Translations under genes and position numbers: made by a program
Notes under the pieces: model-generated
Seen by the model: only the letters and a program-made list of their open reading frames with translations
Database searches by the model: none
Told to the model about the DNA's origin: nothing
Origin: a bacterium
GTDB lineage: Bacteria > Electryoneota > Electryoneia > Electryoneales > Electryoneaceae
Direction of reading: 5' to 3'
Length of the DNA stretch: 64,000 nt
Assembly (NCBI GenBank): GCA_963669175.1
Contig: OY769902.1
Coordinates: 4,512,001 to 4,576,000, forward strand
Part shown: piece by piece, positions 26,389-64,000 of the stretch
Position numbering within the stretch: position 1 is the stretch's first letter
Layout of the letters: the number at the start of each line of letters is the position of its first letter

Positions 26389-26976
26389 TTAATTACCATG
26401 ATCTTCTTTGGAATTATCATCACTTACCGGCAGTGAGGCGGATTTTTTTCTAAATATGAACCAGATCCCAGTAACAATCGGTAGAATCGGCCACCATATG
26501 AGTACATCGTTCAGTCCCCCCCACTTTATCCAGCCATATTCCACGACAAGCATGAAAAAACCAGCCGCGAAAAGAATGATTCCTGGATTCCAGTTTCTCT
26601 GTCGCTCTCGCTTCAAGATCGGTAAAATCAATAATGAGACACTCAACGCAAGGATTACCAGCGGCCAGTTGCGTGAGACCCCACCACGGATCCAGTCGTT
26701 ACCATCCGCCAGGAAAATCAATCCCAGTAACACGAGAAATAATCCAGGGAGCAAACCGGAAGTGTTTCGACTTAGCCATGATCCTGCCAGGCTTGAGCCG
26801 CCAAGAACCATCAGGATCAAAGGCCAGGTGATCTCAATCAACCCAAACTGTTTGACTAGAAACAGGATCCCGAGAAGAACGAGTGCTAGACCAAAGGCGA
26901 TACGGCTTCTGTTCGGCCGTACCCGCGAAGCTGGTTTCGCATCGGTGATATGGATGGCATGTTGTTCGATTGGCAT
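26389..26976 (-). CDS. LiaF/LiaI-like (DUF5668-type) membrane protein
   Basis: Repeated GLxLxxLGxxFL...WPLxL transmembrane units. Confidence 0.6.
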   Translation of the reverse strand: MPIEQHAIHITDAKPASRVRPNRSRIAFGLALVLLGILFLVKQFGLIEITWPLILMVLGGSSLAGSWLSRNTSGLLPGLFLVLLGLIFLADGNDWIRGGVSRNWPLVILALSVSLLILPILKRERQRNWNPGIILFAAGFFMLVVEYGWIKWGGLNDVLIWWPILPIVTGIWFIFRKKSASLPVSDDNSKEDHGN

Positions 26977-33343: not shown

Positions 33344-33359
33344 ACTGTCTATTGACAGT
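33344..33359. promoter_or_regulatory. Candidate TetR operator
   Basis: ACTGTCTATTGACAGT dyad; GACACTGTC occurs at both 33315 and 33341, upstream of tetR. Confidence 0.5.
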
Positions 33360-33478
33360 ATACACTTATATTTCCATAAATGCAAGAAGTTTCTTTAGTT
33401 TAATGAGAATAGAGCGGATGTGTTTCTCGTCAAAATGCACTTCAAAGCGCCAAGCCGATTTGTATCTAAGTTTCTTGG

Positions 33479-34862: not shown

Positions 34863-35140
34863 GGAGAAAATTCGTCAGGATTTTGAGGTTCTCGCTCTCA
34901 ATTTCGCACGGATTGCATTTTGACGAGGGACAGCTGACTCGTATTCAAGGCTGCGGGTGAGAAGTAACTTGTTTTGTTCGATACGAAATCGTATATTGTC
35001 ATGTGACAGTGTCGAACGACTAACCAACACGGCCATTCGCCAACCGACTCGAGTCACCGCCGGGGTTGTACCCACACCAGCCTTTTAGTTTTGCATCTCT
35101 CATGCCCCCTCGGCAGCCCTTGTTTGCAAAGAAAGGCAGG

Positions 35141-43954: not shown

Positions 43955-44300
43955 GACAACGTACATCCCGATGGCACGGGGGGGGAATCTTGGCCTGGTA
44001 CAGTCGCAAAGTGCCTACGTGGCGGCTTTCCAAGACGCTGGACGCGGAGTTCTACTTGGGAGCACTTCAGAGCGATGCGTTTACGATGGCTGGATAGATT
44101 ACGGCGCGAAGATCAGCATGGACGGCAAGGGCCGCTGAATCAACAACCACTTCGTCGAACGGTTGTGACGAAGTGTGAAGCACGAAGAGGTGTACGTGAA
44201 GGCGTACGAGAGTGGCTGGGTGGCGAACGGGATCTGGCGGACGTTTTACTTTTTACAACGCGAAGCGTCCACACAGAACGTTCAACGATCAGACGCCGAA
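43955..44300 (+). pseudogene. IS3-family transposase remnant
   Basis: Fragments TYIPMARG, ISMDGKGR and KHEEVYVKAYES, broken by stops and frameshifts. Confidence 0.75.
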
Positions 44301-44593
44301 CTAGATCTATTTTGGAAAGTCGAAAGTGCATCCGGAGGAGATTCGTGCTGCCTGATTCTCCTCAAAGTTCCTCCGCTGTGGCGATGGTTGTGATGAGCAC
44401 CGTGCTGGCCATAGGAAGCTGGGCCTTCCCGCACAAGCTGAATGCCGCGATGATGCTGGTCACCGCCGAGACCTGCCAGCTCTAGCCGCTGGCCGTGCGC
44501 AATCTGCTCAGGGTGGACCGAATAACATGACAGTATGACAGTACGACGGAGTATGAGCTGACGAAACCGAACATAGCGAGTAGGAGAATAGAG

Positions 44594-45523
44594 ATGAAGA
44601 TCGTCACCCTGACAATGAATCCGGCCATTGACGCCACCTGCGAGGTGGAGAATGTCAAGTCGGAGGATAAGCTGCGAACCAGCGCGCCAAGCTACGAGCC
44701 GGGCGGCGGCGGCATCAATGTCTCCCGCGCGATTCGCAAGCTCGGCGGCGAGTCCCGCGCCATCTACCCCGAGGGCGGGTTCAAGGGCAACCTGCTGCGA
44801 AAACTGATCGAAGATGAGGGGGTGACGCACACGCCCGTCGAATTCGAGGGCATGACGCGAGAGAACCTGACAGTCAACGAATCCAGCAGCAAGGCGCAAT
44901 ACCGGTTTACCATGCCTGGTCCCGAGGTTGGACGGGATGTCCAGGAACGTTGTCTTGAGGCGCTCGTCGAGGGCGAGGCGCCGGAGATCATCGTCGCAAG
45001 CGGCAGCCTCCCGCGTGCGGTGGACGAGGACTTCTACGCACGGGTGGCGTGCAAGGCTAAAGAGCTGGGCGCGAAGCTCGTCGTGGACACTAAGGGCCTG
45101 CCGCTCTACCGCGCCGTCGAACAGGGCGTGTACATGATCAAGCCGAACATGCGGGAGGTCAACGACCTGACCGGCGAAGAGATCGACAGCGAGGAGAAAC
45201 TGATAAGACTGGCCGGGGAGATCTTCGATAAGAAACGTGCCGAGGTGATCGTCATCTCGCTCGGCGCGGGAGGCGCGCTGTTTATCCACGATGGCAAGGT
45301 TCGGCCCATCCGAACACCCACCGTGCCGATCCGCAGCAAGGTCGGAGCGGGCGACAGCATGGTTGCGGGTATGGTGCTGAAGGTGGTGGAGGGCTGGGAC
45401 GCTTGGAACGCAGCGGTGTACGGTGTCGCTGCTGGCGCGGCGGCAGTGCAGACTCCCGGCACGGAGCTCTGCCGCCGCGAAGATACCGAGGAGCTCTATG
45501 AGAGAATAAAAAAAGAGCTCTGA
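44594..45523 (+). CDS. pfkB: PfkB-family hexose-phosphate kinase (6-phosphofructokinase II / 1-phosphofructokinase-like)
   Basis: TLTMNPAID, PGGGGINVSR, SGSLP, KPN, SLGAGGAL, VGAGDSMVAG; visibly more GC-rich than neighbours. Confidence 0.88.
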   Translation: MKIVTLTMNPAIDATCEVENVKSEDKLRTSAPSYEPGGGGINVSRAIRKLGGESRAIYPEGGFKGNLLRKLIEDEGVTHTPVEFEGMTRENLTVNESSSKAQYRFTMPGPEVGRDVQERCLEALVEGEAPEIIVASGSLPRAVDEDFYARVACKAKELGAKLVVDTKGLPLYRAVEQGVYMIKPNMREVNDLTGEEIDSEEKLIRLAGEIFDKKRAEVIVISLGAGGALFIHDGKVRPIRTPTVPIRSKVGAGDSMVAGMVLKVVEGWDAWNAAVYGVAAGAAAVQTPGTELCRREDTEELYERIKKEL

Positions 45524-45539
45524 TACCCATCGTTATGAC

Positions 45540-46875
45540 TGTGCCTCGTCAAAATTCTGTCCGCCGCAACACCATTGATTATCAGCGGTTTCGCTGATAC
45601 CTTAGTTTTATGATAAACTCACTCAAAACCCTGGTACGGTCGATCCGAAATTGGTTTCAATCTCGGAACCAATTGGTATTGGAAAATCTGCTGCTGCGAC
45701 ATCAGATCGCAATACTCCAACGTAAAAAAAAAGCCAAGTCTAAATAAATCCGATAGAGCGATACTTCTTCTCTTTACCAAGCTCCTGAAGAGCTGGAAAG
45801 ATGCCCTTGTCATCGTGAAACCGGAAACGATTATCAAATGCCACAGACAGGGATTCAGACTGTTCTGGCGCTGGAAAAGCCGTCCGCGTAAGAAAGGCAG
45901 GAATCCCATCAATCCCGAGGTCAGGAAACTGATTCGTGACATGAGCCGGGCGAATCCGATCTGGGGTGCGCCACGCATTCATGGCGAGCTGATGAGATTA
46001 GGAATCGTGGTTTCCGAGGCCACTGTGAGCAGGTACATGGTCAAACAAAAGAAACCACCATCACAGACTTGGCGCACCTTCCTGGACAACCATGTGAAAG
46101 ATCTCGTGTCAATTGATTTTCTCGTCGTGCCGACGGTTAATTTCAGGCTGCTCTACGTCCTGGTTGTGCTGTCCCACGAACGCCGCAGGATAGTTCATTT
46201 CAATGTCACCGATTCTCCCACCGCTGCGTGGACTGGACAGCAGATCATTGAAGCGTTTCCATACGACACAGCGCCAAAATACCTGATAAGAGATAACGAT
46301 AAGATCTATGGTTTTGACTTCAAGGAGAAAGTCAAAGCCTGTGGCATTACGCCAATAAGGACAGCGTACCGTTCCCCCTGGCAAAATGCGTATTGTGAGC
46401 GAGTGATCGGCACTCTGCGAAGGGATTGCCTTGACCACATCCTCATTTTCAGTCGACGACAGCTGATGCGTGTTCTTAGTGAGTACGTGGATACCTACTA
46501 CAACACCGAGCGAACACACCTGTCACTTGGCAAAGATTCACCTGAGTCGAGGGAGATCCAGAATCCTGCGACAGGACGCATTGTCGAGATACCGATCCTC
46601 GGCGGCTTGCACCACAGGTATTTCCGGAAAGCTGCTTGATCGTTGGTGTAGTAGCTGTCAGGTCGGAAGTCGAGTTTGTCGTTGGGTTGGTGAGCTAATC
46701 TGCGGGATACTCTGTCTCAGATCTTCGAATTGTGTGATTTCCACTCCATCTCGTCCTCGATTCTTCTTCGTCACTCCTTACCCGAGGGATTTTTTCATAC
46801 GAATCGATTCATTTTCGTCCTGGTTTGAGATTCTCACCCTGAATTTGTGCACAGATTGCATTTTGACGAGGGACA
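45540..46875 (+). mobile_element. IS481-like insertion sequence (copy 2)
   Basis: TGTGCCTCGTCAAAAT...ATTTTGACGAGGGACA terminal inverted repeats; transposase highly similar to copy 1. Confidence 0.9.
45610..46639 (+). pseudogene. Integrase-core transposase, frameshifted in an A9 run at 45724-45732
   Basis: MINSLK...LENLLLRHQIAILQRKKK then stop; the rest continues in the +1 frame to GGLHHRYFRKAA. Confidence 0.85.
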
Positions 46876-47260
46876 ATGTACGCCTTCATGAACAAACACT
46901 GAATCAGAGGTGAAGCTACAACTGTCAACCATTGTGAAAACAGGATTGCTACCAATTGCTACTATCCCCACGGAACAGTTACTAAATTCACAATGTGTAA
47001 TAGCATTATTCAAGCTTGTTTTTTGATCAATTGCTGGCTCACAAGATTCGAATATACAATATGATATCTCTGAATTAACTGAAGAATTTTTCATAAGTTG
47101 TATGGTTGGACCAACTGTTCCCAGTCGTCCGGAAGTAAACATAATCGGATGATTCTCTGTGCCAATAGCAGTAATCTCGCCTTCAACAATGAATTTACAC
47201 CCATCTCCTGCAATATAGGATCCTGGTAAAATAGTGAGTGAACCGCCAGCTAGGATGTGT
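46876..47260 (-). pseudogene. Internal fragment of a right-handed beta-helix-type protein, cut by an IS on each side
   Basis: Open frame GSLTILPGS...VEGEITAIGTENHPIMFTS...ISYCIFE...ITHCEFSNC running from the IS4 end to the IS481-like end. Confidence 0.6.
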
Positions 47261-48563
47261 CACTGCTGTCCGGTTAATTGAGCATTGTTCTTGATTGCTG
47301 TTTTCGTTTTTGTTTTTCGATATCGCTTGTTCTTTGAAAGTCTTGCCACGCTTTGGCTACAGGGATACAGATCAGCAGATGTGTGCTGATAAATACCAAG
47401 AGTTGATGAGTAGTGATTGCCTCGTCGGCGTTCTTTTGCAACACTCTTAGCAGGAGAAAGACGATCATGGCAACCCAGATTTGCGACATCACTGCATTTT
47501 CGGATGTCCCCAGAAAAGACTTGATTTTCAGGTTCTGTTTCACCCATTTGAAGAACAGTTCAATCTGCCAGCGTTGCTTGTAGAGCTGCGCAATGGTCAA
47601 CGCGTCTATTTCCAACAAGTTTGTCAGAAACCACAATTCCTTTTTTGTTTCCGGATCGGTGAAGTGTACCAGGCGCAAGGGATCAGGATAGTGGTCTGCC
47701 GGGGTTCCGTCAAAATGACCAATCCAGTCACCACGGACACCTGTTCCGGCTTCCACCTTTCGTTTTTCGGTCCATTCAAAGCCGACGTTGCTTTTCATGC
47801 GTGTGACGAAAAAGGCCTGGTTGCGATTGATCCTGGCAAACCAGGCGCTGTCGAAGTAGCCACGGTCAACCAGATAGGTTGTGCCTGACGTAATGGGCAT
47901 GGTTCGCGCCGCCCCGATATCGCTGACCTTGCCGTCGGTGATGACAATGTCTTGTGGAATAAGCCCGTCATGATCCAGTAGGGTGTGCAGTTTCAGAGCA
48001 CCTTTTGTTGTGCGGTATTTTGCCCAGGGCAACCGTTCCAGGCATACCGGAATCAGCGTGCTGTCAAGCGAAAGAAGTTTACCGGGAACGGGAAAATCAT
48101 GCTTGGAAAACCTGTCACAGAAAAGGGCGAATAATGCCTGAAACAGTTCGTAGTAAAATCGCCAGTTAATCCGCTTGTTCGCTTCTGCCAGGGTCGACTT
48201 CTTTACATTGACCAAGGGGTCCATTGAGAACAGGGATGCCGTTGCATGCTGAATATCGCGTGTCGACTTCAATCCCGCCAACTGTGCGAACATCAGAACC
48301 GCAAAATGGGTGGATGCCGTAAACACAGAGGCATATTTATCAACATGATACTTCGTGGCAAGCTTGTCAAAGAGCTCGTTGGGTACAAGCTTTTGTATCT
48401 GCATCAATACGGTTGTAGATTGAGCCATGACTTGCATCCTCCGTTGATGAGAATGTGTGTGCAAACTCAATCTTACCAACGGTACCTTGTGATGCAAGTC
48501 TTTATTATTATACAATCTCCGGGATAGTTACACGAAATCGTGATAACCTACCGGACAGCAGTG
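47261..48563 (-). mobile_element. IS4-family insertion sequence
   Basis: Terminal inverted repeats CACTGCTGTCCGGT (47261) and ACCGGACAGCAGTG (ends 48563); no target duplication seen. Confidence 0.9.
47274..48428 (-). CDS. IS4-family DDE transposase (DUF4372 + DDE_Tnp_1)
   Basis: LDST, KLHTL, DRGY, YKQRWQIELFFKWVKQ (YREK motif); GGAGG RBS. Confidence 0.92.
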   Translation of the reverse strand: MAQSTTVLMQIQKLVPNELFDKLATKYHVDKYASVFTASTHFAVLMFAQLAGLKSTRDIQHATASLFSMDPLVNVKKSTLAEANKRINWRFYYELFQALFALFCDRFSKHDFPVPGKLLSLDSTLIPVCLERLPWAKYRTTKGALKLHTLLDHDGLIPQDIVITDGKVSDIGAARTMPITSGTTYLVDRGYFDSAWFARINRNQAFFVTRMKSNVGFEWTEKRKVEAGTGVRGDWIGHFDGTPADHYPDPLRLVHFTDPETKKELWFLTNLLEIDALTIAQLYKQRWQIELFFKWVKQNLKIKSFLGTSENAVMSQIWVAMIVFLLLRVLQKNADEAITTHQLLVFISTHLLICIPVAKAWQDFQRTSDIEKQKRKQQSRTMLN

Positions 48564-48880
48564 ATGTTGAGACCATCAACGCTAAGGTTACTAAAAAATC
48601 CCCTGGAAATTATGCATTGGGCAACAAGGACAATGAAGGTTCCTTTCTAGTTGGGTATGTCGGTCGTGCAGACCAGGATCTTAATGCACGTCTGAAGTCA
48701 TGGGTGAGTAAAACGAAACGACCTCTTTTCAAGTACAGTTATGCCTCGTCAGCCAAAGCCGCATTTGAAAAAGAATGCGAAAACTATCACGACTTTGATC
48801 CACTTGGAAACGATATTCACCCTGATCGCCCCGATGGCACTGATTGGGGATGCCCCTGCTGCGACACTTTTAACGACTGA
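48564..48880 (+). pseudogene. Small GIY-YIG-like protein, 5' end probably lost at the IS4 junction
   Basis: PGNYALG...YVGRA...RL...EKEC..YH, C-terminal HPDRP...CPCC; no in-frame native start after the IS end. Confidence 0.6.
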
Positions 48881-48907
48881 ATCAACTATAATAATGCGGA
48901 GATAGTT

Positions 48908-51900
48908 ATGAACGATCCAGGCGGATCAAATTGGCACATTTGGGATCTTCATATTCACACGCCATTCTCAGCATTGAACAATGGTTTCCCGAATGACTTC
49001 GATGAGTATGCCAAGCGTGTATTTGCTAAAGCTGTTGAAATGCAAATTGCTGCAGTTGGAATTACGGATTATTTTTGTATAGAGGGCTATAAGAAAATCC
49101 GGGCGCTCCTTAACAACAAAGCTCGTTTAGAAGAGCTTTGTGGCAGTGGAATAGCTGAAGCCGTCCAAAATATCCTTTTTATCCCAAACATTGAATTACG
49201 CGCTGATATAATAATCCAAGACGTTAGCGGTAAAGACAGCAGGGTTAATTTCCATGTATTGTTCTCCGATGAGATATCACCAGAACAAATCGAGGAAAAT
49301 TTCCTTAGAGAGATAAAGTTTACTAAGGAAGGTAACCCAAGTGGAGCCGACGAATCATGGTCACTTACGATAAGCAATTTAGAGATCCTAGGAAGAAGTT
49401 TGAAAAAACAGCATCTCCCCTTTGCAGAAAAACCGGATATAGAGATTGGCATGATGAATGCCGTAGTCAACCATAGTGAAGTCAGCAAAATCCTGGCTAA
49501 TAAACCCTCAATCTTTGGGAGCCGATACCTCCTAGCAGTCGTTGCAGATGAAGACTTATCAAAATGTAGCTGGAACGGCCAAGGACATCTGACACGAAAA
49601 GTGATGATCCAGAAATCAGATATATTGTTCTCGTCCAATCCAAGTACTCGAGAATTTGGACTAGGTCTTAAACATCCGACTATTGATGAGTTCAAAGCTG
49701 AGTTTAAAACCTTTAAGCCGTGTATTCACGGGTCAGATGCCCATGGCTTAAAGCATCTATTTATCCCTAGTGAACAGAGATTCACTTGGATCAAGGCTGA
49801 TCCGACATTTGCTGGGCTAAAACGCATCTTGAGGGAACCAGAATCTCGAGTTTTCATTGGTCAAGAACCACCCGCCATTGACCAACAACGTAATAATAAG
49901 ACACGTTATTGTGAGAAACTGTCATTTGAAAAACTTTCAAAATCCGCCTTTGATGAACTTTGGTTTTCCGGCGATATACCTTTAAATACTGGTTTGGTAG
50001 CTGTGATCGGGAACAAAGGTAGCGGCAAGAGTGCGCTGGCTGATTCTTTAGGATTGGTTGGTAATTCGCCAAGAGAGAAGCACTTCTCTTTTCTCAATCT
50101 CAACAAATTCCGCCGTCAGCGCGAACGCAAAGCTGAACACTTCAGAGCATCCCTACATTGGCTTTCCGGTGACATCAATTCGCGACTTCTATCTGAAACC
50201 GTTGATACGACCTCTGTAGAACGGATTAAGTATATTCCTCAAAACTACCTTGAAACGATCTGCAACGAGGTTGCAAGTGGTGAGGGTAGCGAATTTGACA
50301 AAGAACTAAAAAGTGTCATTTTCTCCCATGTCCCTGACCATGAACGACTTGATTGCCAATCATTTGATGATTTAATGGCTTTCAAGACAAACGAAACTAG
50401 TGAACGCATCAAGTTATTACAGAAAAGGTTACACAACATTAACGAGCGAATTGTAACTTTGAATGAAATGTTAACTGATGAATATCGGCAAAAACTTGAG
50501 CAACAATTAGAACATAAAAAACTTGAGCTTGACGCTCACAACGAAGTTAAACCGAAAGAGATCATTCCTCCAGATAAAGATCCTGTTGTAGGAGACAAAA
50601 ATGAGAAACTTGCAGCAGAGATTGAAAAGCTTCGTAGAGAAATTGAACAAATTGATTCGAATATCTTAGATATCAAATCCCAAAATAAGTATATGCTTCG
50701 TCGCAAAGCATTAGCTGAAAAACTGAAAGCTAAGCTCGAAAATCTTCAGCGCAGTTATAACGATTTTTCAGCAAGTTGTTCTGAATGTGAAGAATTGGGT
50801 TTACAACCTAAAGATGTCATCACATTCAAAGTTCATTTTGAAAAATTAGAGGATATCATATCAAGTGCTGTTCTCGAAAGTCGTAAATTCTCGAACATGC
50901 TTTTAGAGGACGTAGAGGGTACCCCAGTCAATGAAAAGAAACAAAAGCTTGCAAAGGTGAAAGAACTCCGCAATACCATGAGCGCTGCAGACCAACAATA
51001 TCAGCAGTATCTAGAAGAACAAGCGAAATGGGAAGCTCGTAACAAAGAAATCATTGGTTCAACTGATACCCCCAAAAGTCTTGAATATACCAGAGCACAA
51101 CTCAAAAAATTGCTTCTACTTCCAACCGAACTCTCCACAAAAAAAGAAGAGCGCATCGCGATTGTCCAAGCAATCTTCCAAGAAATCGACAATTTGGCAA
51201 GTAAATATGCCGCATTGTACAATCCAATTGAACAGGCAATAGCTGGAGATCCCCTGAAGGATCGGGGTCTAGAACTTGGTTTCAAGGTATCTATTGTCGC
51301 AAAGAGTTTCGAGGATCGTTTCTTTAATCTGATTCAGCAAGGTAGACGAGGAAGTTTCTGCGGTGTTGAAGAAGGACAGAAGCGACTTCGAAAAATGTTA
51401 CGCGAAGCCGATTTCTCGACTACACAAGGCGTTGCGATCTTTATCAAGGAAATAGATGATGCTTTAACATATGACCTTCGCGATGATGAGCATCAGCTTG
51501 TACAGATCACAGATTTAGTAAAGAAAGGGATTGAACCTGTCAATGTTTACGATTTTGTCTTTGGTTTAGAATACCTCTTTCCTCGCTACGCGCTTACTTG
51601 GGGAAATCGTACTCTTGACCAGCTTTCACCAGGCGAACGCGGAGCCTTGCTTCTTGTATTTTATTTATTAGTAGACAAGGACACTATCCCTTTGGTTATT
51701 GATCAACCGGAGGAAAATCTTGACAACGAATCCGTCTATCGAATGCTTGTACCTTGTATTAAAAAAGCGAAGGAGCGACGCCAAGTGATTATTGTAACAC
51801 ATAATCCGAATTTGGCAGTTGTCTGCGATGCAGATCAAATTATATACTGCGAAATGGACAAACCTGGAGGGAATCGAATAACATATACAACGGGATCCAT

Positions 51901-52000
51901 CGAAAATCCTGCTATCAACCGCCATATTGTTGATGTATTAGAAGGTACTCGTCCAGCATTTGATGTTCGCGATGCGAAGTATAAACTTGTAGACTTTTAG
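48908..52000 (+). CDS. PHP-domain + ABC/SMC-type ATPase (Ppl / TrlF-like anti-phage protein)
   Basis: WDLHIHTP, ITDY, NFHVLF, GSDAH (PHP); GNKGSGKS, long coiled coil, LSPGER, IDQPEENLD, VTHN. Confidence 0.85.
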   Translation: MNDPGGSNWHIWDLHIHTPFSALNNGFPNDFDEYAKRVFAKAVEMQIAAVGITDYFCIEGYKKIRALLNNKARLEELCGSGIAEAVQNILFIPNIELRADIIIQDVSGKDSRVNFHVLFSDEISPEQIEENFLREIKFTKEGNPSGADESWSLTISNLEILGRSLKKQHLPFAEKPDIEIGMMNAVVNHSEVSKILANKPSIFGSRYLLAVVADEDLSKCSWNGQGHLTRKVMIQKSDILFSSNPSTREFGLGLKHPTIDEFKAEFKTFKPCIHGSDAHGLKHLFIPSEQRFTWIKADPTFAGLKRILREPESRVFIGQEPPAIDQQRNNKTRYCEKLSFEKLSKSAFDELWFSGDIPLNTGLVAVIGNKGSGKSALADSLGLVGNSPREKHFSFLNLNKFRRQRERKAEHFRASLHWLSGDINSRLLSETVDTTSVERIKYIPQNYLETICNEVASGEGSEFDKELKSVIFSHVPDHERLDCQSFDDLMAFKTNETSERIKLLQKRLHNINERIVTLNEMLTDEYRQKLEQQLEHKKLELDAHNEVKPKEIIPPDKDPVVGDKNEKLAAEIEKLRREIEQIDSNILDIKSQNKYMLRRKALAEKLKAKLENLQRSYNDFSASCSECEELGLQPKDVITFKVHFEKLEDIISSAVLESRKFSNMLLEDVEGTPVNEKKQKLAKVKELRNTMSAADQQYQQYLEEQAKWEARNKEIIGSTDTPKSLEYTRAQLKKLLLLPTELSTKKEERIAIVQAIFQEIDNLASKYAALYNPIEQAIAGDPLKDRGLELGFKVSIVAKSFEDRFFNLIQQGRRGSFCGVEEGQKRLRKMLREADFSTTQGVAIFIKEIDDALTYDLRDDEHQLVQITDLVKKGIEPVNVYDFVFGLEYLFPRYALTWGNRTLDQLSPGERGALLLVFYLLVDKDTIPLVIDQPEENLDNESVYRMLVPCIKKAKERRQVIIVTHNPNLAVVCDADQIIYCEMDKPGGNRITYTTGSIENPAINRHIVDVLEGTRPAFDVRDAKYKLVDF

Positions 52001-52078: not shown

Positions 52079-52924
52079 TTAATTTAGAAAAATATCTGTA
52101 ATCAAGGTACATCGGCAATTCGGATGCGCTGGAATAGGTGGCAATTGATTTAAAATATACTCCTGTCCATTCAACGGACCGCAAACAGGACAAACTCGTT
52201 CGTCCAAGGCCGTATACCACACAACTTCCTCAACTTTCATGTCTTTGTATAGATGTATCCTGCCTTGGTTATAAGATCGCATGACTTCTGTCCGTGTAAT
52301 AACTTCAATCCTATTCTGAGCCGTCTTAAACACCTTCTTCCCCGCGAAGCGAAATTTATCCTTTTCTGATGGTTTGATTACATCCCCAATATCCAGTGCG
52401 ATTTGACCTATATCCCGACCAGAAAGAATACCCGCCTGCAGGTTGAGCTTGATGTCATCCAGCAATCGATCTGACACCGTTCCCAATAGCTTGATGTTAC
52501 ACAGAGCCAGGTTTTCCAGTGCTCGACCATCAATCGTATCAAACGCTTTATCAATTATCGCCTGCCAGGCTTCAGTTTCCTTCAATCCCATCACCCCGCT
52601 GTCCCTAAGCTCAAACACTCCCCGTTCGATTCCCAGTCTAAAAGCGTCTTTTGTCATTGGACGGGCAAGTGAAGTTGTAGACTTCTTCAGCTCCTTCATG
52701 ACTGACTCAATCCGGTCGAGGATAGATTCAAGACGTCGCTTCCAGAGGGCAGATCCGGGTGCGACACTTTTCATTTCCGCCACACGTAAAAGTTCACTCC
52801 GAACCTGGGTTGCGGCCTGTTCGAGTGATTTCAGAAGAAGCGTTTCCTGTTCTGCGGTGTACTGCTGAGCTGCCTTCAGGGAGATGTTCAGCTCAACTTC
52901 CAGCCGAGGATCGATAGTTGCCAT
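52079..52924 (-). CDS. Phage minor head morphogenesis protein (SPP1 gp7 / Mu gpF)
   Basis: ITRTEVMRSYNQG, DERVCPVC, PPIPAHPNCRC. Confidence 0.88.
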   Translation of the reverse strand: MATIDPRLEVELNISLKAAQQYTAEQETLLLKSLEQAATQVRSELLRVAEMKSVAPGSALWKRRLESILDRIESVMKELKKSTTSLARPMTKDAFRLGIERGVFELRDSGVMGLKETEAWQAIIDKAFDTIDGRALENLALCNIKLLGTVSDRLLDDIKLNLQAGILSGRDIGQIALDIGDVIKPSEKDKFRFAGKKVFKTAQNRIEVITRTEVMRSYNQGRIHLYKDMKVEEVVWYTALDERVCPVCGPLNGQEYILNQLPPIPAHPNCRCTLITDIFLN

Positions 52925-52927
52925 GAA

Positions 52928-54388
52928 TCAATGATCCTCAGAGTGTGTCTGCTGGAATTGAATATCTCGATTCACTTCATCATATAATGCTTCAACATCC
53001 GCATCAGATTGCGGGTTATCAGTCTTGTCGTTCTGCGATTCATCCTTCGCCAAGCCCAGATATTTCCGTGCCTCATCTCGAGTGAGTACATCCTGCAGGG
53101 TTAGACTGGCGATGATCTCCGGTTTAAGCAGCCTGGACATACGCGATTCTTCGCCATTGTAGTTTTCATCTTCCACTGAAGGCTGCAATCCAAGCCTGGA
53201 TTGAAGGGTTGCCCTGCTGACCAGACCGCGATCATACAGCTCCATGTACATCTTCCGACGATCCTGTTCTTCAGCCAAGTCGAGATCATCAAACTGATAG
53301 GTGATTTCAGCATCATCATTTCCTTGCATTTCCAGCCAGTCCAGATAGACCCAGTCGAGGATCTCCCTAACAATCCTCTTAATCTCAGACAGCATGATGA
53401 TGATCTTTTTAAACCCGACCGAAGCTGTTGCGAAATTCGGTCCCTCACCTGTGACAAGACTTTTCACAAATCCCAAGGCCACGATGATATCGCTTTTTAC
53501 TTCCTTGACTTTCTCTTCGGTTCGAAGGACTTCACCCTCAGTGCCGTAGGTTTTCACATCCACGTAATAGGGAACGACTACACCTTGCTTCGGGTCCATC
53601 TCGTCCAGGATATCACGAATCTTCTCGATCATCTCCTGCTTGGGTGTGATGATCTTGTCACCGAACTTACCGCCAACAGAGATGAAACGGAGTGGAGTTG
53701 TCCAGCGTTGGGCAATTGCCTTTTCTGCGTTCCGGTAGTGGCGCATGAGCTGGATGGATTCAAAGGCAGGCTGAACAATGGAAACGCCATGCAAGTTGAA
53801 ATCCGGACTGTCCCATTTCGCCCGGAAGAACTGTTCCGGTTCAAGGCTGATTTCTTTTCCCATGCCAGCAGCAGCCTGGTCGTCTTTCTTCACTTTCTGC
53901 TTGATTTCATCGATCTCACCCGTTTCATCATCAAGCTTGTAAGTCAGGCCAATAGGATTTAGACATGTAATCCGTTCGTAGTCCTTGAAACCGTCACCTG
54001 ATTTCTTACCACCATACTGCTTATAGGCAGCGCACTCGCCCTTAACTAACAGTTGCAAAACCATGTCACGGATGAGCTTGTCCATCCCAAGGCGACGGTG
54101 GAGTGCTCGAGCCTTCTTTTGCGTATCTGCAGCATCCACGAGCGGGATGATCTGCTCCCCAACTGCAAACACACGCCAGGCATTGACCGCGTTGTTCACA
54201 ATCGGTTCGCTGGTGAAATAGTACCAGGCAAGCTGTGCCATTTCTTCCCATTTCTCGGGTACACCTTCAACCGTGTCCAAACCATCTGTTGCACCACCCA
54301 TACGATTCAAGGCAGCGCCATGGGCAACATCAAATCCAGAAGAAACAGGGTTGCGTCTCTGCAACCCCAGTGCTGAAAGCAGGGTCAT
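52928..54388 (-). CDS. Phage portal protein
   Basis: 486 aa between terL and gp7; LVKGEC, HGVSIVQPA, ALGF...G.NFATA, YDRGLVS, TRDEARKYLGL. Confidence 0.78.
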   Translation of the reverse strand: MTLLSALGLQRRNPVSSGFDVAHGAALNRMGGATDGLDTVEGVPEKWEEMAQLAWYYFTSEPIVNNAVNAWRVFAVGEQIIPLVDAADTQKKARALHRRLGMDKLIRDMVLQLLVKGECAAYKQYGGKKSGDGFKDYERITCLNPIGLTYKLDDETGEIDEIKQKVKKDDQAAAGMGKEISLEPEQFFRAKWDSPDFNLHGVSIVQPAFESIQLMRHYRNAEKAIAQRWTTPLRFISVGGKFGDKIITPKQEMIEKIRDILDEMDPKQGVVVPYYVDVKTYGTEGEVLRTEEKVKEVKSDIIVALGFVKSLVTGEGPNFATASVGFKKIIIMLSEIKRIVREILDWVYLDWLEMQGNDDAEITYQFDDLDLAEEQDRRKMYMELYDRGLVSRATLQSRLGLQPSVEDENYNGEESRMSRLLKPEIIASLTLQDVLTRDEARKYLGLAKDESQNDKTDNPQSDADVEALYDEVNRDIQFQQTHSEDH

Positions 54389-54407
54389 TCTTTACTCCAG
54401 TATCTGG

Positions 54408-54614
54408 CTATTCCTCGCCGGTCAGGAAACTGACAATCTCTCCAAGAAGGTCTTCAACATGGCCGAGGTCACCCACATGCGCGAAGGTGATCGGTTCATC
54501 CTGGCCGTGTTTCTTGAGTTCCGTTTGCATCTTCCCGATCAGTGATTGAATCTTTGCCTGTTTTTCGTTGTAATCTTTCTTGGCTTTCGCTTTTCTTTCT
54601 TGCTGTGTCATCAT
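54408..54614 (-). CDS. Small hypothetical phage protein
   Basis: 68 aa, AAGGAGG RBS, ITFAHVGDLGHV motif, own upstream promoter-like region. Confidence 0.7.
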   Translation of the reverse strand: MMTQQERKAKAKKDYNEKQAKIQSLIGKMQTELKKHGQDEPITFAHVGDLGHVEDLLGEIVSFLTGEE

Positions 54615-54722
54615 CGCCTCCTTGTAAGGTGTTGTTTCTGCTGTGCTTCTGCACTAATCAGCGATGAATTGTATGCGATTATCAAGTCCTTGTGCTGGCT
54701 TCTGAAGGCACTCAAACCCTTA

Positions 54723-56288
54723 TCAGAACTTGAAAATCGGTTTTGTCGTTACGGGCATGATAGCGATCTCTTCCACATTGGTCTCGATCTCCTTCATCTC
54801 ATCCAGTTCCACTGCCAGAACAGCACACCTGACCGCATCGATGATGTGATCACGCCCTTTGGAATAGATCACCTTCCCGTTGGTCATCGTGTATGTCTGG
54901 GTGGTGAACTGATCTTCGATTTCCAGATCGCTGTCAGGAAAGCTGATCAGCTTTCTTGCCAGACGACCGTTGATCAGACTGGTCATCAACTCCTTGGTAC
55001 GCTTCTTGATCTGCTTGCCAGAAGTGTTGAACCCAATGGTGGTCGACGAACCGAAGTCGAAGGCCTGCAACCTGTCCCCGAAATTGTGATCCGCGAACTT
55101 GTCGAGGCGTTTCAGGTCCTGTTCGACTGCCAAACCATTCCCGCCCTTGTCAATCCCGATCCAGGTGAACTCGAAGTAGTTGTCCAAGACAGCAACCGCT
55201 TCAGCGATATAAGGGTAGGCAACATGTTCGAGGTGAACACGCAGCACTGCGTTCAGCAAACCTTCATCATCCCGTTCAAACACCACCAGTTCGCATGGAT
55301 CTGACGTATATCCAAGGTCGCCCCCCAGCACGTACTCACCTGGCTGGGGTGTCAATCCCAGCAACAAGTCAAACCGTGTACGGACTTCATCATCACCATC
55401 ACAGTCCAGCATCTCCTCACCGGTGATCACCACCTTGCGGTAAGCATGGATTACTTTCTGGTTGGCATGGAAAGCCTCGACATTGAATGCTGCATAAGAA
55501 GGACTGCCGTGTTCGCCAAGAATCTCATGCTGGTATCCTGAAGTATCACGGCCACCGTAAAACTCGACCAGTTCTTCTTCACGCTCCTTTGTCCAGTTAG
55601 GATGAAGCATTGAAGGCCAGCGCACGACAAACCAGCGTCCGGTCTTATCCTGGGTCAGTCTGTAGTAGGTTGAATCCCTAAGTCCATTGGGATTGGAGTA
55701 AATTCGCATCGTGCCATTGGCGTTCAAGCATCGACGCAATGCTTTCCAGGCTCGCTCAGTCAACCATGCACCCTCATCGACCCAGATCCGATTTACGTGA
55801 AGCGATCTTAGCGACTGCCCCTTGTCACCAGCTGGCCGGAAGTGAACCAGCGTCCCACCAGCGAATCGGATCTGGTAATAGGGCTTTCGTTTGATATCCA
55901 GGTGACCAAGACGATTCCTGGCGATACTAGCTTCCAGATCTGCATTGCTGAATATCTGATGTTCCACTTCCTCAATGATGGTTTCCAGATGTCCCTGATG
56001 TGGAGTGACAACCAGCCCGCTGTCATGTGGTGTTGTGAATCCGAAGTGCAAAACCAGGGTAGTTAGGACGATGGTCTTTCCGACCTCACGGCCATCCTGA
56101 TGAATGATCTGAGGATGATCATTACGCAGATCCTCAACCTGATGCTCCCAGTATGCCCTGATCGTCCCGTCCTGGTTTGCCAGAAACTTCTCGCCCCATT
56201 GCACCGGGTCTTTCAGGATGCGATAAGCCTGGATCATCTCATCGGACAAATCGCTGGAAGCCTTATGATGATTAGCTTCAACAGGCAT
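54723..56288 (-). CDS. Terminase large subunit
   Basis: GREVGKT Walker A, IWVDEGA Walker B, YSNPNG coupling motif, nuclease GGDLG, IDKGGNG, DHIIDAVR. Confidence 0.88.
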   Translation of the reverse strand: MPVEANHHKASSDLSDEMIQAYRILKDPVQWGEKFLANQDGTIRAYWEHQVEDLRNDHPQIIHQDGREVGKTIVLTTLVLHFGFTTPHDSGLVVTPHQGHLETIIEEVEHQIFSNADLEASIARNRLGHLDIKRKPYYQIRFAGGTLVHFRPAGDKGQSLRSLHVNRIWVDEGAWLTERAWKALRRCLNANGTMRIYSNPNGLRDSTYYRLTQDKTGRWFVVRWPSMLHPNWTKEREEELVEFYGGRDTSGYQHEILGEHGSPSYAAFNVEAFHANQKVIHAYRKVVITGEEMLDCDGDDEVRTRFDLLLGLTPQPGEYVLGGDLGYTSDPCELVVFERDDEGLLNAVLRVHLEHVAYPYIAEAVAVLDNYFEFTWIGIDKGGNGLAVEQDLKRLDKFADHNFGDRLQAFDFGSSTTIGFNTSGKQIKKRTKELMTSLINGRLARKLISFPDSDLEIEDQFTTQTYTMTNGKVIYSKGRDHIIDAVRCAVLAVELDEMKEIETNVEEIAIMPVTTKPIFKF

Positions 56289-56361
56289 ATCTACCCCCTT
56301 GATAGTCCGTATAATCCATGCCATGTTGTATGCGAAAACCATCTAAAACAGGGAGAAGGCC

Positions 56362-60279: not shown

Positions 60280-60576
60280 ATGAGTTATTTCGCAGTGATT
60301 ACTTTTGATCTTGCAAATGCAAGTTCAAAGGATTATGAAAATGCCTATAGTGATCTTAGCGACATTGGATTTTCCAAACAAATAGCCTCTTCAGAAGGAA
60401 ATAACATCACCTTACCTACAACGACATGTGCAGGTGAGTTCAATGGCAATAGTGCTGGTGACGTGAGAACAGACTTAGCAAATCTTGTTAAGAACGCCTT
60501 CAAAGCACGTGGCTTCACTTCAGAAATATTCATTGTCGTTGCCGGTAATTGGGCTTGGAGTCATAGAACGACTTGA
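60280..60576 (+). CDS. Small ferredoxin-fold protein, GhoS/DUF2622-like
   Basis: VITFDL..ASSKDYE.....L..IGFSKQI....G....LP pattern; AAGGGG RBS; opposite strand to the phage genes. Confidence 0.5.
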   Translation: MSYFAVITFDLANASSKDYENAYSDLSDIGFSKQIASSEGNNITLPTTTCAGEFNGNSAGDVRTDLANLVKNAFKARGFTSEIFIVVAGNWAWSHRTT

Positions 60577-61275
60577 CACATTCCCTAATTTTCTTTCAGA
60601 TCCATCCGGTCCAATCTTCCGAATCCAAGGTTGATCAACATCCGGGTTGTAGAAGCGCAGGACATTGCGATTGTTTCGCACACAAACTATCTCGATGTGT
60701 TTTTCAGACACTTCACCGATGGTCTGACCATCGTGTAGGAAGCACACAAGACCATAATCTTGACCGCATGGAAATCGGAACCTTCCTCGATTCTGATACA
60801 GGCGTGGCTCAGACCAACCTAAGCTCAGTGCCTTGTCACGGATGGCATCCACCAGTTTGATTGTTTCGTGATTGATGGATCGGGTGAATGACCAGTCACC
60901 ATCATCTGGATAGAGATGAGGTGCAGAAAGCGCGGAACTCTGTTGCTCGTTGCCGTGAAAAATTCTTTTTAATTTGGGTGGTTGATAGTCATCCGGGTTC
61001 AGTCGATGGATGGAATCGAGAAGAGATGGTTTGCCGTACTGTTTGACAGCCCATTCATGCAGGGAGTTGAAGCGGACACGGGTTTGATTAAATGCTGATG
61101 TTTTCAGCATGCCATCTCTCATGGCCTTTTCCGCCACTCCCATACGGTAGCGAAGCCATGCGTAGTACTCCGGATCAAGGCGACGGTACATGATCCTGTC
61201 GTGTTCTACTTCCTTCAGCTCACTATGCAGATCATCGATATTCATTGAGTTCAGTGTTGTTGAAACAAACAGCAT
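60520..61275 (-). CDS. Hypothetical phage protein
   Basis: 251-aa ORF directly downstream of the primase with GAAAGGA RBS. Confidence 0.65.
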   Translation of the reverse strand: MLFVSTTLNSMNIDDLHSELKEVEHDRIMYRRLDPEYYAWLRYRMGVAEKAMRDGMLKTSAFNQTRVRFNSLHEWAVKQYGKPSLLDSIHRLNPDDYQPPKLKRIFHGNEQQSSALSAPHLYPDDGDWSFTRSINHETIKLVDAIRDKALSLGWSEPRLYQNRGRFRFPCGQDYGLVCFLHDGQTIGEVSEKHIEIVCVRNNRNVLRFYNPDVDQPWIRKIGPDGSERKLGNVSSRSMTPSPITGNDNEYF

Positions 61276-61299: not shown

Positions 61300-64000
61300 T
61301 CAGAATGGAAGTTCTGACTCATCAGTTTTTCCTAAATCATCAGGGAGATCCAGCAGATCAAAGTCCTGTTCAGGACCGCTGGAAATGTTGGAAATGTCGA
61401 TGGAGATGTTATTTTCAGACATTTCCATCGCTGAAACGCTTTGCTGACGCTGGTTTGAATGATCCGTGGAGATGTTGGAGATGTGAGCCCCCCTATTACT
61501 TACATGTGCGTGTGCGCGTGTATGTGTGTATACATGATCATACCCGCGTAGGTTAGGGGTTACATCTCCAACATTTCCATTATTCCCTGAATCGACCGTC
61601 TGGCTTGGGTTTCCAAGTTGGAGATGTTGCTGTAAAACATCTCCATCCACATTTCCAACATCTCCATTTTCCGCATCATTTTTCGATGGAGATGGATCGA
61701 CTTTCTGAAGTGCGACACAAAAACCACCTGCATGTTTCCCATGAAGCTGAACTTTCACCTGCTTCAATCCCTGGAAGACTCTGTCCTGATATCTGCCTAG
61801 CGCTTTCCCCAACCGGATCTGTTTGGATCGCTCATTCTTATCACCTCGGAGTGCAGGTAATAATTCCTTGTCTTCACAAAGCTGGTTCAGATCACAGACA
61901 CGCTTCGGTTCATCGCCAAACTCATCCCACCAGGCAACAATGAATTCACTCCAGGCCTGAGTGACTTCATCCGATTCTTTGTACATGTCGTTAAGGTTTT
62001 CGAGAAATCCTGGTATCCCGGCATTATCAAGAATCCCGCCTATCACACTCGACCAGTTTTCGAATGAGCCAAGCGTGTGAGCCGATTCATGCTGACCTGC
62101 TGCAACCCAGGCTTGTATCAGGATCAACAAAGCTGAAACCAGCTCCGTTCGATTGCTTTTCACCCAATCCACGAGCTTTGGATGCCTGAATCCCTGCCCC
62201 TCACGAAGCCAGGGACGCTCCATATCCGGCTGTAGTCGAATGCGGATACAACGCCGAGCAAGTTCTGCGGTGAGCTTGGGATTGTTGCCGGTTATCATCC
62301 ACATGGCACGGTTGGGAAGCGTCAACATAGCTGACTGTCCGAGGAGTCGGTCCTTCCAGACCTCGGAAGTGACAACAGAAGCAAGCGGTGCACTGTCAAG
62401 CTGCCTTCGTTCCGAAGTGTTGTCCAGCAAGATGATCGAACCGCCCATGGACAATTCCGCAGTGATCATCTTTCGTGTTTCATCTTCCTGGGTCGGCAGG
62501 GTTCGAGAATCAGCAGGTTGTGCTGTTGCCAACTGTGAAACGATGCTGCAGAGCAGCCCTTTGCCTGAACCTGGTGTTGGTGCAGTGAAAAGATGTATCG
62601 GAGTATTTCCCCGAATCATCCTCTGTGCGAATGGAAGCAGCATGGCAGCGACCATGTGTGCACGATCCGACTGCGTCTTGAATGGAAAATCGTGCAGTAC
62701 CTCATCCAGGATCAGGTCGCGAGCATATGAAATAGCATGATTATCAGGATTCTCCGGGACATCAATCTTCCCAAGTGAATCATGCGGCTCATACCACAAC
62801 GCTTCTTTTGGATGGTATCCGGGTGTTTTAATAAGGACACCTTTTGAGCTATAGACTGGGGCTGTGACGATTGAGTCAATCTGAGGAAGGTCCCTGTCAA
62901 TGAACTCAGGCATGTCACGGGACACTTCCCGCATCGGAACAACATCGACAGGACCTCTTTCCGTTTCTCGATACCAAGAGGCTATCCGCGCGAGCAATCC
63001 ATAGCGCGCAGATTCATTCATCAGATCAAAACGTGTACGAATAAAGGGTTCGCCATTCTTGTTGACAAGCTGTTCCCTGACAATCCTCACCAATGTTCCC
63101 GAACGATTATACAAGTAGGGTTTATCGCCAGGCAGTCGGCTTTCACTTGAGTTATGCAAATGAACTGCATCCCACGCGTCTTCAATGATATCCCGAAGTT
63201 GCCTGTGATTAACCTGTATCTCTGGAAGGGGAATTTTCCTTGGTGATGATCTGCTTTGCTTCCTCCTTGGCAGCTGTACTCCCGATAATTCTGCGATCCG
63301 TTTGACCGCCCCCTTCATGTCATGCGCAGGGCCATGCTGGACGAGGAAATCGAAAACGGATATGGTTTCACCGGAAATGAATGAATGGAACGATCCGCGT
63401 TCGACAGAGTTCGTTCCATCCGAAACACCAGCAGAGGGATTCATGTCACCCGATTGGGATGATGGATCGCGACATTCGAGCCAGCCATCTCCTGATGTGT
63501 TGCCGGTCAGCAAGTCACCATAGATGTCCGAAAGTTGAATTGTCGCTAAGGCTTCACTGCGCCAGAGTTTCCACTCTCTGCTGTTGTCAGGATTTGAAAT
63601 TGGTGAAGTTGGCTTGGTATCGGGCTTTGCTGTAGCTTTCAGCACTTGGTCAAGTGCAGTTTGATCTATTCGTTCGAATGAATCAGGTTGATAAGCTGAG
63701 AATGCTCCATCATTTATTCTGAAGAATCGGTTTCCCTCGCCTTTCGCACCGAACCACCAAGGAAGCCAGACAAGGTTGCCCAAGCCATCTTTATTCAGTT
63801 TGTCCTGCTTGGGAAATACTTCAATCCCTTTCGCTTTATCCGGTCTGGCATTCCCGCCTTGTGCCAGAGGGATATCCGATGGAAGCAGCTGCAATGCAAG
63901 TTTGCGCACCTTGGACGCAGGAATGCCTGGCTCGAAAAAACACCACAGGTGCCATCCAAGGCCACCACCTGAACGTTCGAGGTAAGCAGGAAGATGGTGT
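61300..64000 (-). CDS. AEP-type (TOTE-like) primase fused to a P-loop helicase-like domain, 5' partial
   Basis: Frame open to the window edge with YLERSGGGLGWHLWCFF; EVFPKQ...GNLVWLP; APTPGSGKG, ILLDN, TGNN, LARR. Confidence 0.82.
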   Translation of the reverse strand, partial: HHLPAYLERSGGGLGWHLWCFFEPGIPASKVRKLALQLLPSDIPLAQGGNARPDKAKGIEVFPKQDKLNKDGLGNLVWLPWWFGAKGEGNRFFRINDGAFSAYQPDSFERIDQTALDQVLKATAKPDTKPTSPISNPDNSREWKLWRSEALATIQLSDIYGDLLTGNTSGDGWLECRDPSSQSGDMNPSAGVSDGTNSVERGSFHSFISGETISVFDFLVQHGPAHDMKGAVKRIAELSGVQLPRRKQSRSSPRKIPLPEIQVNHRQLRDIIEDAWDAVHLHNSSESRLPGDKPYLYNRSGTLVRIVREQLVNKNGEPFIRTRFDLMNESARYGLLARIASWYRETERGPVDVVPMREVSRDMPEFIDRDLPQIDSIVTAPVYSSKGVLIKTPGYHPKEALWYEPHDSLGKIDVPENPDNHAISYARDLILDEVLHDFPFKTQSDRAHMVAAMLLPFAQRMIRGNTPIHLFTAPTPGSGKGLLCSIVSQLATAQPADSRTLPTQEDETRKMITAELSMGGSIILLDNTSERRQLDSAPLASVVTSEVWKDRLLGQSAMLTLPNRAMWMITGNNPKLTAELARRCIRIRLQPDMERPWLREGQGFRHPKLVDWVKSNRTELVSALLILIQAWVAAGQHESAHTLGSFENWSSVIGGILDNAGIPGFLENLNDMYKESDEVTQAWSEFIVAWWDEFGDEPKRVCDLNQLCEDKELLPALRGDKNERSKQIRLGKALGRYQDRVFQGLKQVKVQLHGKHAGGFCVALQKVDPSPSKNDAENGDVGNVDGDVLQQHLQLGNPSQTVDSGNNGNVGDVTPNLRGYDHVYTHTRAHAHVSNRGAHISNISTDHSNQRQQSVSAMEMSENNISIDISNISSGPEQDFDLLDLPDDLGKTDESELPF
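61381..61665. repeat. Dyad-symmetric array of 12 GGA(A/G)ATGT octamers, probable replication origin
   Basis: Forward copies at 61381, 61390, 61402, 61468, 61477, 61620; inverted copies at 61419, 61562, 61571, 61637, 61649, 61658. Confidence 0.85.

Follow-up and report, generated by a model that had tools for sequence, protein, structure and literature searches.

Among the replication origins described so far, those of the Staphylococcus aureus pathogenicity islands (SaPI) are the nearest in design to the locus presented here. In the available part of PMC9371898, SaPI origins follow rep directly and have 6-12 iterons, divided equally between the two sides of an AT-rich centre and with at least two per side oppositely oriented. 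The iterons are read by a winged helix in the C-terminal domain of Rep, and Rep loads itself, probably as two hexamers (PMC9371898; 10.64898/2026.10.17.759575; both as far as available in part). For pRN1, a stem-loop located 3' of the gene of a replicase with archaeo-eukaryotic primase (AEP), superfamily 3 (SF3) helicase and winged-helix domains was described as the origin, the same was suggested for phage BIP-1, and the model for these replicases involves two rings and bidirectional forks (Berkner et al., PMC4234260, available part). The present analysis concerns an array of short repeats in a 64,000-nt stretch, hereafter the window, of a bacterial genome of the Electryoneaceae (GenBank assembly GCA_963669175.1, contig OY769902.1, positions 4,512,001 to 4,576,000). 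The array is located in the tail of the primase-helicase gene P0002 of a prophage remnant. It is probably the replication origin of this remnant, placed inside the C-terminal linker of the initiator's own gene. The best reading of the sequence, and by analogy, would be an iteron origin of the SaPI/P4 style that is read by its own initiator.

Motif mapping of the window revealed twelve GGARATGT octamers at positions 61381-61665, in the tail of the P0002 gene, six as GGARATGT on the plus strand and six as the complement ACATYTCC (starts in Table 1), in the order >>><>> <<><<<. The start-to-start spacings are 9, 12, 17, 49 and 9 in one arm, 85 over the centre, and 9, 49, 17, 12 and 9 in the other arm, and all six mirror pairs share one axis at 61523.0. 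The number of octamers, their orientations, the mirrored spacings and the common axis reported in a preliminary description of this DNA were all reproduced. The genome containing the window is a single contig of 5,447,365 bp with 50% GC, in which the octamer occurs 424 times on both strands together, corresponding to an expectation of 0.022 per 285 bp. No second cluster of at least four GGARATGT within 300 bp was found elsewhere in this genome, and none of 300 random layouts of the window's sites gave six mirror pairs on one axis. The observation is far beyond chance.

Relatives of P0002 (L002-L095) were collected by scans of genome, viral and metagenome collections; the metagenome scan gave at least 257 stretches encoding such relatives, 80 of which were kept. 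The helicase end was present in 46 loci including the window; 8 of these were duplicates and 5 had less than 600 nt downstream, which left a set of 33 distinct loci, the window among them. The most frequent 7-mer (both strands merged) in the 860 nt that follow the winged helix is present in 6-14 copies in 29 of the 33. Among control zones of the same size, 4 of the 33 upstream and 1 of the 24 downstream reached six copies, and three of these five exceptions are displaced or additional arrays (L011, L014, L015).

Site layouts were then described per locus with a position-weight matrix grown from the locus's own top 7-mer. The six-plus-six layout recurs at the equivalent position in relatives with 38-57% protein identity, built from different iterons. 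The exact order >>><>> <<><<< was found in six loci (L007, L017, L027, L037, L044 and the window), and a layout off by one or two sites in L002, L004, L005, L006, L008, L010, L018, L019, L024, L032, L039 and L045. A second symmetric layout, ><<>>> <<<>><<, is full in L041 and partial or variant in L015, L035 and L040. Across the six loci with the exact order, spacings in the left arm are about 9-20, 11-13, 14-22, 45-59 and 9-10 with a centre step of 83-122, and those in the right arm roughly mirror them, less closely in L027. In 15 of the 28 loci with at least eight sites, four to six mirror pairs agree on an axis to within 1 bp, which no more than 1 of 300 random layouts achieved; 6/6 pairs are present in four loci (window, L037, L039, L041). 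The remaining 13 of the 28 are less regular in their symmetry, in part because the automatic matrix misses degenerate sites. The preliminary description had proposed to look in homologous primase genes for a conserved geometry with a different octamer, and this is what was observed, exactly in the six loci and with one or two sites off in most others.

The iterons themselves are lineage-specific (TGGAGATGT, GCGGGACGT, GGAAACGTT, TGGGGACGT, CCGGATGTT, GGGCATAGT and others), and they change in concert. In seven aligned related arrays the site positions are fixed; GCGGGAC is found in nearly all copies in four of these loci, and in three sister loci of this clade most copies read GCGGAAC and a few GCGGATG. 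In L008, L019 and L031 two subtypes share one array: most sites read GCGGAAC, and one inner site on the left and the right arm's reversed site read GCGGATG. In addition to its 3' array, L014 carries a second array (3852-4060), which lies well upstream of where the helicase C-terminal region is encoded and apparently inside the primase-helicase gene; it comprises at least 11 repeats, CGGTTACAT / ATGTAACCG, that occur in both orientations. We take this second array to be reminiscent of the two cis sites of P4, ori and crr. An analogous repeated 7-mer, CATTACA in nine copies, was seen in L015.

As the preliminary description had stated, the array is in frame: the minus-strand open reading frame (ORF) of the primase-helicase reads through it. 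The five unreversed sites of the gene-proximal arm begin in codon phase 0 of the gene strand and are read GGA-GAT-GT as Gly-Asp/Asn-Val, giving the peptides ...NGDVGNVDGDV... and ...NGNVGDV.... The five unreversed sites of the gene-distal arm lie in phase 1, read AC-ATC-TCC as x-Ile-Ser (...HISNIS... and ...NISIDISNISS...), so that the peptide differs from that of the other arm. This difference between the encoded peptides places the constraint on the DNA. Relative to the stop codon, the array lies inside the ORF in 20 of the 33 loci, straddles its end in 2 and lies beyond it in 11; seven of these 11 non-coding arrays have at least eight sites (L002, L024, L026, L029, L033, L039, L043), and in L043 the acidic end motif is followed by the stop and then by the array. 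L007 and L017, which come from one metagenome and are 70% identical overall, share 92-95% identity in the helicase end and the winged-helix helices versus 25-48% in the tails, and their iterons differ (GGAAACGTT versus TGGGGACGT). Conserved peptide repeats with loss of the DNA symmetry had been named beforehand as a result that would speak against an origin; the opposite was found, with the layout kept and the tail peptide not. The conserved constraint at the array is on the DNA level and not on the peptide level.

The 36-nt perfect alternation of purines and pyrimidines (RY) at the centre, with the dyad axis inside it, was likewise present as first described, its midpoint (61518.5) being located 4.5 bp off the axis. 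It is the third-longest RY run in the genome, where only three runs reach at least 24 nt; besides it there are a 62-nt (ACAT)n-like run at genome position 2655327 and a 37-nt (AT)n(GT)n run at 1496466, both of them simple repeats. The centre of the window is flanked by a C-run at 61488-61493 (then TA) on one side and by TTAGGGG at 61553-61559 on the other, and many relatives likewise have boxes at the two edges of the centre, C-rich towards the gene and G-rich away from it. The AT fraction in 30-nt windows is 0.47-0.57 across the centre, and its maximum within the array is 0.67.

RY runs were compared across the 25 loci in which a centre (61-111 nt) is clear. In these centres the longest run has a median of 23 nt and reaches at least 15 nt in 16 loci. 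As a control, equal-length windows of the same locus were used: for 17 of the 25 loci no window reaches the run of the centre, and in the pooled set 33 of 2043 windows do. The tract is retained where the array is non-coding (L026, 27 nt; L029, 25 nt; L039, 25 nt) and is therefore no coding artefact. Short runs of 8-10 nt were found in eight loci and one of 12 nt in L007, and the centres of L004, L006 and L018 carry two short CG runs around a less GC-rich middle. The GC content of the relatives' centres is 0.51-0.74, and an AT-rich insert between two alternating tracts is present only in L027 and L045. The alternating RY centre is a conserved trait of the family. At the right edge of the centre, between the RY tract and the inner iterons, a small hairpin-like box of the GGGG-NNNN-CCCC type, e.g. 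GGGGCGAACCCC, was seen in L004, L006, L008, L010, L019, L031 and L037; in the L004/L008 clade a CTACCCTCCCCTC box is located across the centre from it.

The N-terminus of P0002 carries an AEP-TOTE primase domain (Pfam PF22548, 77.7 bits against a cut-off of 27). In a phmmer search of all PDB chains (E up to 1), only the PrimPol entries 7nqf (E 5e-5) and 7nqd were matched besides chance rows; the likeness to 7nqf is one to a CRISPR-associated PrimPol, and NF040561 scores 48 bits, under its cut-off of 200. The helicase half matches PHROG families phrog_10537 (unknown function) and phrog_19930 ('DNA polymerase/primase'), and a Walker-A-like motif, APTPGSGKG, could be read from the translation. 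Matches to proteins of cultured phages and plasmids are restricted to this half and cover 36-47% of the query (phiCbK-like and DSS3P8-like phages, small Streptomyces plasmids); a DNA search against cultured phages gave no matches, near or distant. An AlphaFold2 model of residues 701-900, based on a 25-sequence alignment, contains a helix-helix-helix-strand-strand winged helix with a predicted local distance difference test score of 80-97 for this block. Most of the 50 rows listed by VIA-align for this model are winged-helix proteins (Fur, ArsR, MarR, PadR, the winged helices of MCM8 and ORC), with Z scores mostly of 5.8-7.2 and one of 8.6 among the rows listed. Zalpha domains, which bind Z-DNA, also appeared (4kmf, Z 6.3; 3irq, Z 6.1; 7vwv, Z 6.4); they are tied with many ordinary winged helices and nothing was drawn from them. 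P0002 is an AEP primase combined with a P-loop (SF3-like) helicase and a winged helix, and the array begins about 12 codons past the last of these domains. A winged helix as the last folded domain is also typical of initiators that read iterons. An acidic motif of the (V/I/F)DLxxLP(D/E) type closes many of the ORFs that continue through the array, with ...(S/D)(E/D)LPF as terminus in the window, L007 and L017. We assume that this end resembles the ...DIPF tip of the bacterial single-stranded DNA-binding protein, and it could presumably recruit host replication proteins.

The distance between iterons correlates with the distance between winged helices (r 0.43; 21 loci, 210 pairs). The set for this Mantel test consisted of the 25 aligned sequences minus L003, L011, L014 and L015, which have too few sites or no clear centre. 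When the adjoining helical region was controlled for, the partial r was 0.30, a value that 1-2 of 2000 permutations attained; with the two regions exchanged it was 0.05 (509 of 2000). The correlation stands when the last residues, which possibly overlap the first iteron, are dropped. With modest support from these sequence comparisons, the winged helix encoded directly before the array would be the simplest candidate for the reader.

According to the best reading, the winged helix would bind the twelve TGGARATGT iterons; in each arm, five of these (three outer, two inner) point at the centre and the sixth is reversed. Because the arms are exact mirror images, two helicase rings could assemble face to face across the 77-bp centre. 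The alternating RY tract may deform or open first, in place of the usual AT-rich unwinding element, after which the primase domain would prime and forks would depart in both directions. Binding by the initiator, loading of the rings, the melting site, bidirectionality and any Z-DNA formation are all points that we infer, and the remnant may or may not fire to this day. The more specific proposal that a large family of uncultured phages replaced the AT-rich unwinding element by an alternating CG/CA tract, which would act as a supercoil-driven non-B switch (B-to-Z or easily untwisted) or as a priming platform for the AEP, appears rather unlikely. The replication origin suggested in the preliminary description is itself supported by the conserved layout with changing iterons, by the non-coding arrays and by the winged helix before the array; as a reading of sequence and analogy, it may be called well supported by comparative evidence and precedent.

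Several results weigh against an origin. The centre is not AT-rich (GC 0.50), unlike the SaPI design, and no DnaA box is present within 700 bp of the array, the sole one-mismatch site being located at 62295, outside it; a defining feature of the SaPI design is therefore missing. The helicase part reaches only 16.1 bits against the 108.7 cut-off of NCBIfam TIGR01613 primase_Cterm, the P4 family (E 0.0038), and the phmmer search of PDB chains (E up to 1) gave no match of P0002 to any solved Rep. For the winged-helix model, Foldseek found no match in the PDB at E <=0.001, and the VIA-align match is to the generic fold only, Z scores of 6-8.6 being in the range that the tool calls common. Mantel tests on related sequences overstate significance, and since relatedness inflates such tests the co-divergence of iteron and winged helix was counted as modest support. 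Four of the 33 loci have no clear array (L003, L011, L025, L052; top 7-mer in 4-5 copies). The element is a remnant, for which capsid, tail, lysis and integrase genes were not found in the window, and its origin may be idle. The GC skew over 48-76 kb changes slope near 60-61 kb, which coincides with a change of gene module, and in the three public runs found with this DNA, all stored as contigs, the depth is flat by construction, without joints, and uninformative on replication. The small share in run X1 consisted of two short pieces from the helicase region of a relative and was set aside. Finally, the real reader could be encoded by the conserved 251-aa gene next downstream of the array, for which tblastn gave hits in 29 loci (duplicates included).

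With the 251-aa product or a host factor as the reader, the array would be a platform for another protein and serve late-gene control, as a partition centromere or as a pac site. In many relatives the array is followed by the 251-aa gene of unknown function, terminase and portal genes of the window are located 5-8 kb downstream on the same strand, and the pac site of phage P1 also has short repeats on both sides of a centre. However, the array stays at the end of the primase-helicase gene whatever follows it; in L026 and L033 the nearest match after the array is a homologue of the window's 253-aa protein and not of the 251-aa protein. The divergence of the iterons tracks the initiator's winged helix, no ParA/ParB genes were seen, and terminase homologues gave no hits within the fetched loci. 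The model of the 251-aa protein gave no fold match above Z 4.8, and its sequence no Pfam or PHROG family and no usable Atlas match. A platform of this kind is considered unlikely. The 251-aa protein has two conserved blocks, FRRLDPEYYAWLR... and LYQNRGRFxFPCGxDYGLVCFL.

It is quite improbable that the origin is recognised as a DNA structure, with a 111-nt imperfect inverted repeat extruding as a hairpin or cruciform in the way proposed for the pRN1 and BIP-1 stem-loops. Replicases of the AEP/SF3/winged-helix type are tied to stem-loops 3' of their gene (PMC4234260, available part). At the present locus, an inverted-repeat finder returned 111-nt arms that are 70% complementary, and the 307-nt stretch, folded as single-stranded DNA, gives a single long hairpin (-67 kcal/mol, z -10) that none of 100 shuffles equalled. 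The pairing, however, sits in the octamers, where 45 of 48 positions are complementary across the axis, versus 33 of 94 outside them, and at the 22 positions on each side of the axis there is none at all because the axis falls on a base. Direct octamer repeats within an arm and reversed sites would be unneeded for a stem, and extrusion of a cruciform from duplex DNA is unlikely with so many mismatches. Because the pairing of the hairpin is located in the iterons, iterons read in duplex DNA are the preferred explanation. The earlier statement that the sequence between the octamers is mostly not palindromic agrees with the 33 of 94 positions; the spacers are nevertheless not random, since 21 of 41 positions in the 49-nt spacers are complementary against 25% expected. 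An Rfam 15 scan gave chance microRNA-hairpin rows only (22-24 bits versus gathering scores of 76-90). That the array has no DNA function and arose as a side effect of a repetitive tail peptide of low complexity or through a recent inverted duplication, as the low-complexity peptide and the arm-to-arm similarity of the 49-nt spacers might suggest, is scarcely credible in view of the different peptides of the arms, the same layout in non-coding DNA with at least eight sites, and a layout that is constant over 38-57% protein identity with the iteron changing in concert.

Table 1. Coordinates of the array, the surrounding P0002 gene and the gene that follows, in window positions
Feature	Position	Strand	Remarks
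Primase-helicase gene P0002	61300..64374 (window part 61300..64000)	-	1024 aa; start beyond the window at window-equivalent 64374; stop 61300-61302
Winged-helix domain	61702..61914	-	P0002 residues ~821-891; last folded domain before the tail; proposed iteron reader
Degenerate 13th site GGAGATGG	61688..61695	+	Just beyond the symmetric set; no mirror partner; found by position-weight matrix
Gene-proximal arm	61562..61665	.	6 octamers: 61562, 61571 ACATYTCC; 61620 GGAGATGT reversed (plus strand); 61637, 61649, 61658 ACATYTCC
Centre between inner iteron pairs	61485..61561	.	77 bp; contains dyad axis 61523; GC 0.50
Perfect RY alternation	61501..61536	.	36 nt; CG, CA/TG and TA steps; candidate melting, deformation or priming element
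Gene-distal arm	61381..61484	.	6 octamers: 61381, 61390, 61402 GGARATGT; 61419 ACATTTCC reversed (complement ACATYTCC); 61468, 61477 GGAGATGT (plus strand)
Acidic C-terminal peptide DFDLLDLPDDLGKTDESELPF	61303..61365	-	Translated after the array
Conserved 251-aa gene	60520..61275	-	Function unknown; directly downstream of the array; alternative candidate reader

The primase-helicase gene sits in a replication/recombination module. Upstream of it, on the same strand, genes for a sigma-like regulator, a PD-(D/E)XK nuclease, an AAA_24 ATPase, an ERCC4 nuclease and a RecD2-like helicase are located; downstream follow four unknown genes, the large terminase, the portal and a MuF-like protein. Past this downstream group there are transposases, ordinary host genes and, on the opposite strand, the gene of an SMC-like ATPase; the element is a prophage remnant of about 20 kb. 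On one side it is bounded by a 1030-aa SMC_N/AAA_21 ATPase (48908-52000, opposite strand) and a DDE transposase (47274-48515), on the other by a 1966-aa beta-helix protein sorted by the type IX secretion system (T9SS), as seen in window 44000-52000 and 52079-56342 and in L001 13034-19523. T9SS sorting domains were also found in neighbouring host genes and may point to a Bacteroidota-like host. A 2949-aa ORF at 35066-43912 (plus strand), with GH94 supersandwich and catalytic domains and a glucoamylase-like domain, may be read as resembling a cyclic beta-1,2-glucan synthase and is flanked by rve_3/HTH_32 transposase genes (33352-34623 and 45815-46636).

Replication origins of uncultured phages are almost never mapped. 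The layout described here offers a sequence rule by which six-plus-six mirrored iterons around an RY core, at the 3' end of an AEP primase-helicase gene, would give a candidate origin and its cognate iteron directly from a contig. The points of interest are the translated origin, the strict mirrored six-plus-six layout with turnover of the iterons, and the alternating core in place of the AT-rich element. In most lineages the putative origin is translated as the linker of its initiator, so that one set of bases has to serve the binding site, the spacing and the reading frame at once. If this holds, the specificity of the origin and the sequence of the initiator would evolve as one unit. The many natural pairs of iteron and winged helix are also a ready data set for learning the recognition code of this domain. 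Beyond the textbook case of SaPI and P4, the centre that is not AT-rich raises the question of how a self-loading helicase opens it; were the RY tract indeed a switch, the origin would open by a different physical route.

The P4-like and lambdoid origins to which the array was compared in the preliminary description are the right kind of analogy, and the nearest described design is the pri-rep-ori module of SaPI and the phage-inducible chromosomal islands (PICI). The alpha protein of P4 is a single polypeptide with primase, helicase and C-terminal winged helix, the last of which binds octamer iterons in both orientations; unlike here, the P4 primase is of the Toprim type, and ori and crr lie apart from the gene. 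The lambda origin in gene O and the N15 origin in repA have their iterons inside the coding sequence of their own initiator, in a linker-like stretch, as in P0002. Their initiators are unrelated to P0002, and lambda uses four sites, an AT-rich flank and the host DnaB helicase; we know of no mirror-image six-plus-six layout for either origin. The SV40 large T antigen and the papillomavirus E1 protein are SF3 helicases with their own origin-binding domain, for which inverted short repeats place two facing hexamers. Both belong to eukaryotic viruses, whose origins have far fewer sites, four pentamers in the case of SV40, next to an AT tract and an early palindrome. In the literature covered, which mostly excludes subscription journals, no description was found of an iteron origin with an alternating RY core or with the present design.

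The replicases of pRN1 (ORF904) and of the Bordetella phage BIP-1/BPP-1 have the same domain order as P0002 and a proposed origin 3' of their own gene; in the available part of the source, those origins are stem-loops of about 100 nt without iterons, unlike the repeated octamer in a fixed layout found here (PMC4234260). In BIP-1, a small repeat palindrome is located about 470 nt past the end of the replicase gene (L096 308-411; record 26607-26710). It is an inverted repeat with 48-nt arms, two TTGCCTCGT direct repeats and TTTCTCATG repeats, distinct from the stem-loop of Berkner et al.

With SaPI/PICI elements (SaPI1, SaPIbov1 and SaPI5 with its fused PriRep5), as far as described in the available parts of PMC9371898 and 10.64898/2026.10.17.759575, the array shares a helicase-initiator with a C-terminal winged helix, fused to the primase in SaPI5, short iterons at the 3' end of the initiator gene in two opposed sets across a centre, and iterons specific to each element. 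It differs in its centre, a 36-nt RY tract at GC 0.50 where that of SaPI is AT-rich by the same partial sources, and in being translated within the initiator in 20 of 33 loci. Further differences are the fixed six-plus-six layout with one reversed site per arm and the AEP primase of PrimPol type; the phmmer search of PDB chains matched the initiator to no solved Rep. Overall, although it departs from the AT-rich centre of SaPI and from the curated P4 family model, the array would work like a SaPI/P4 origin.

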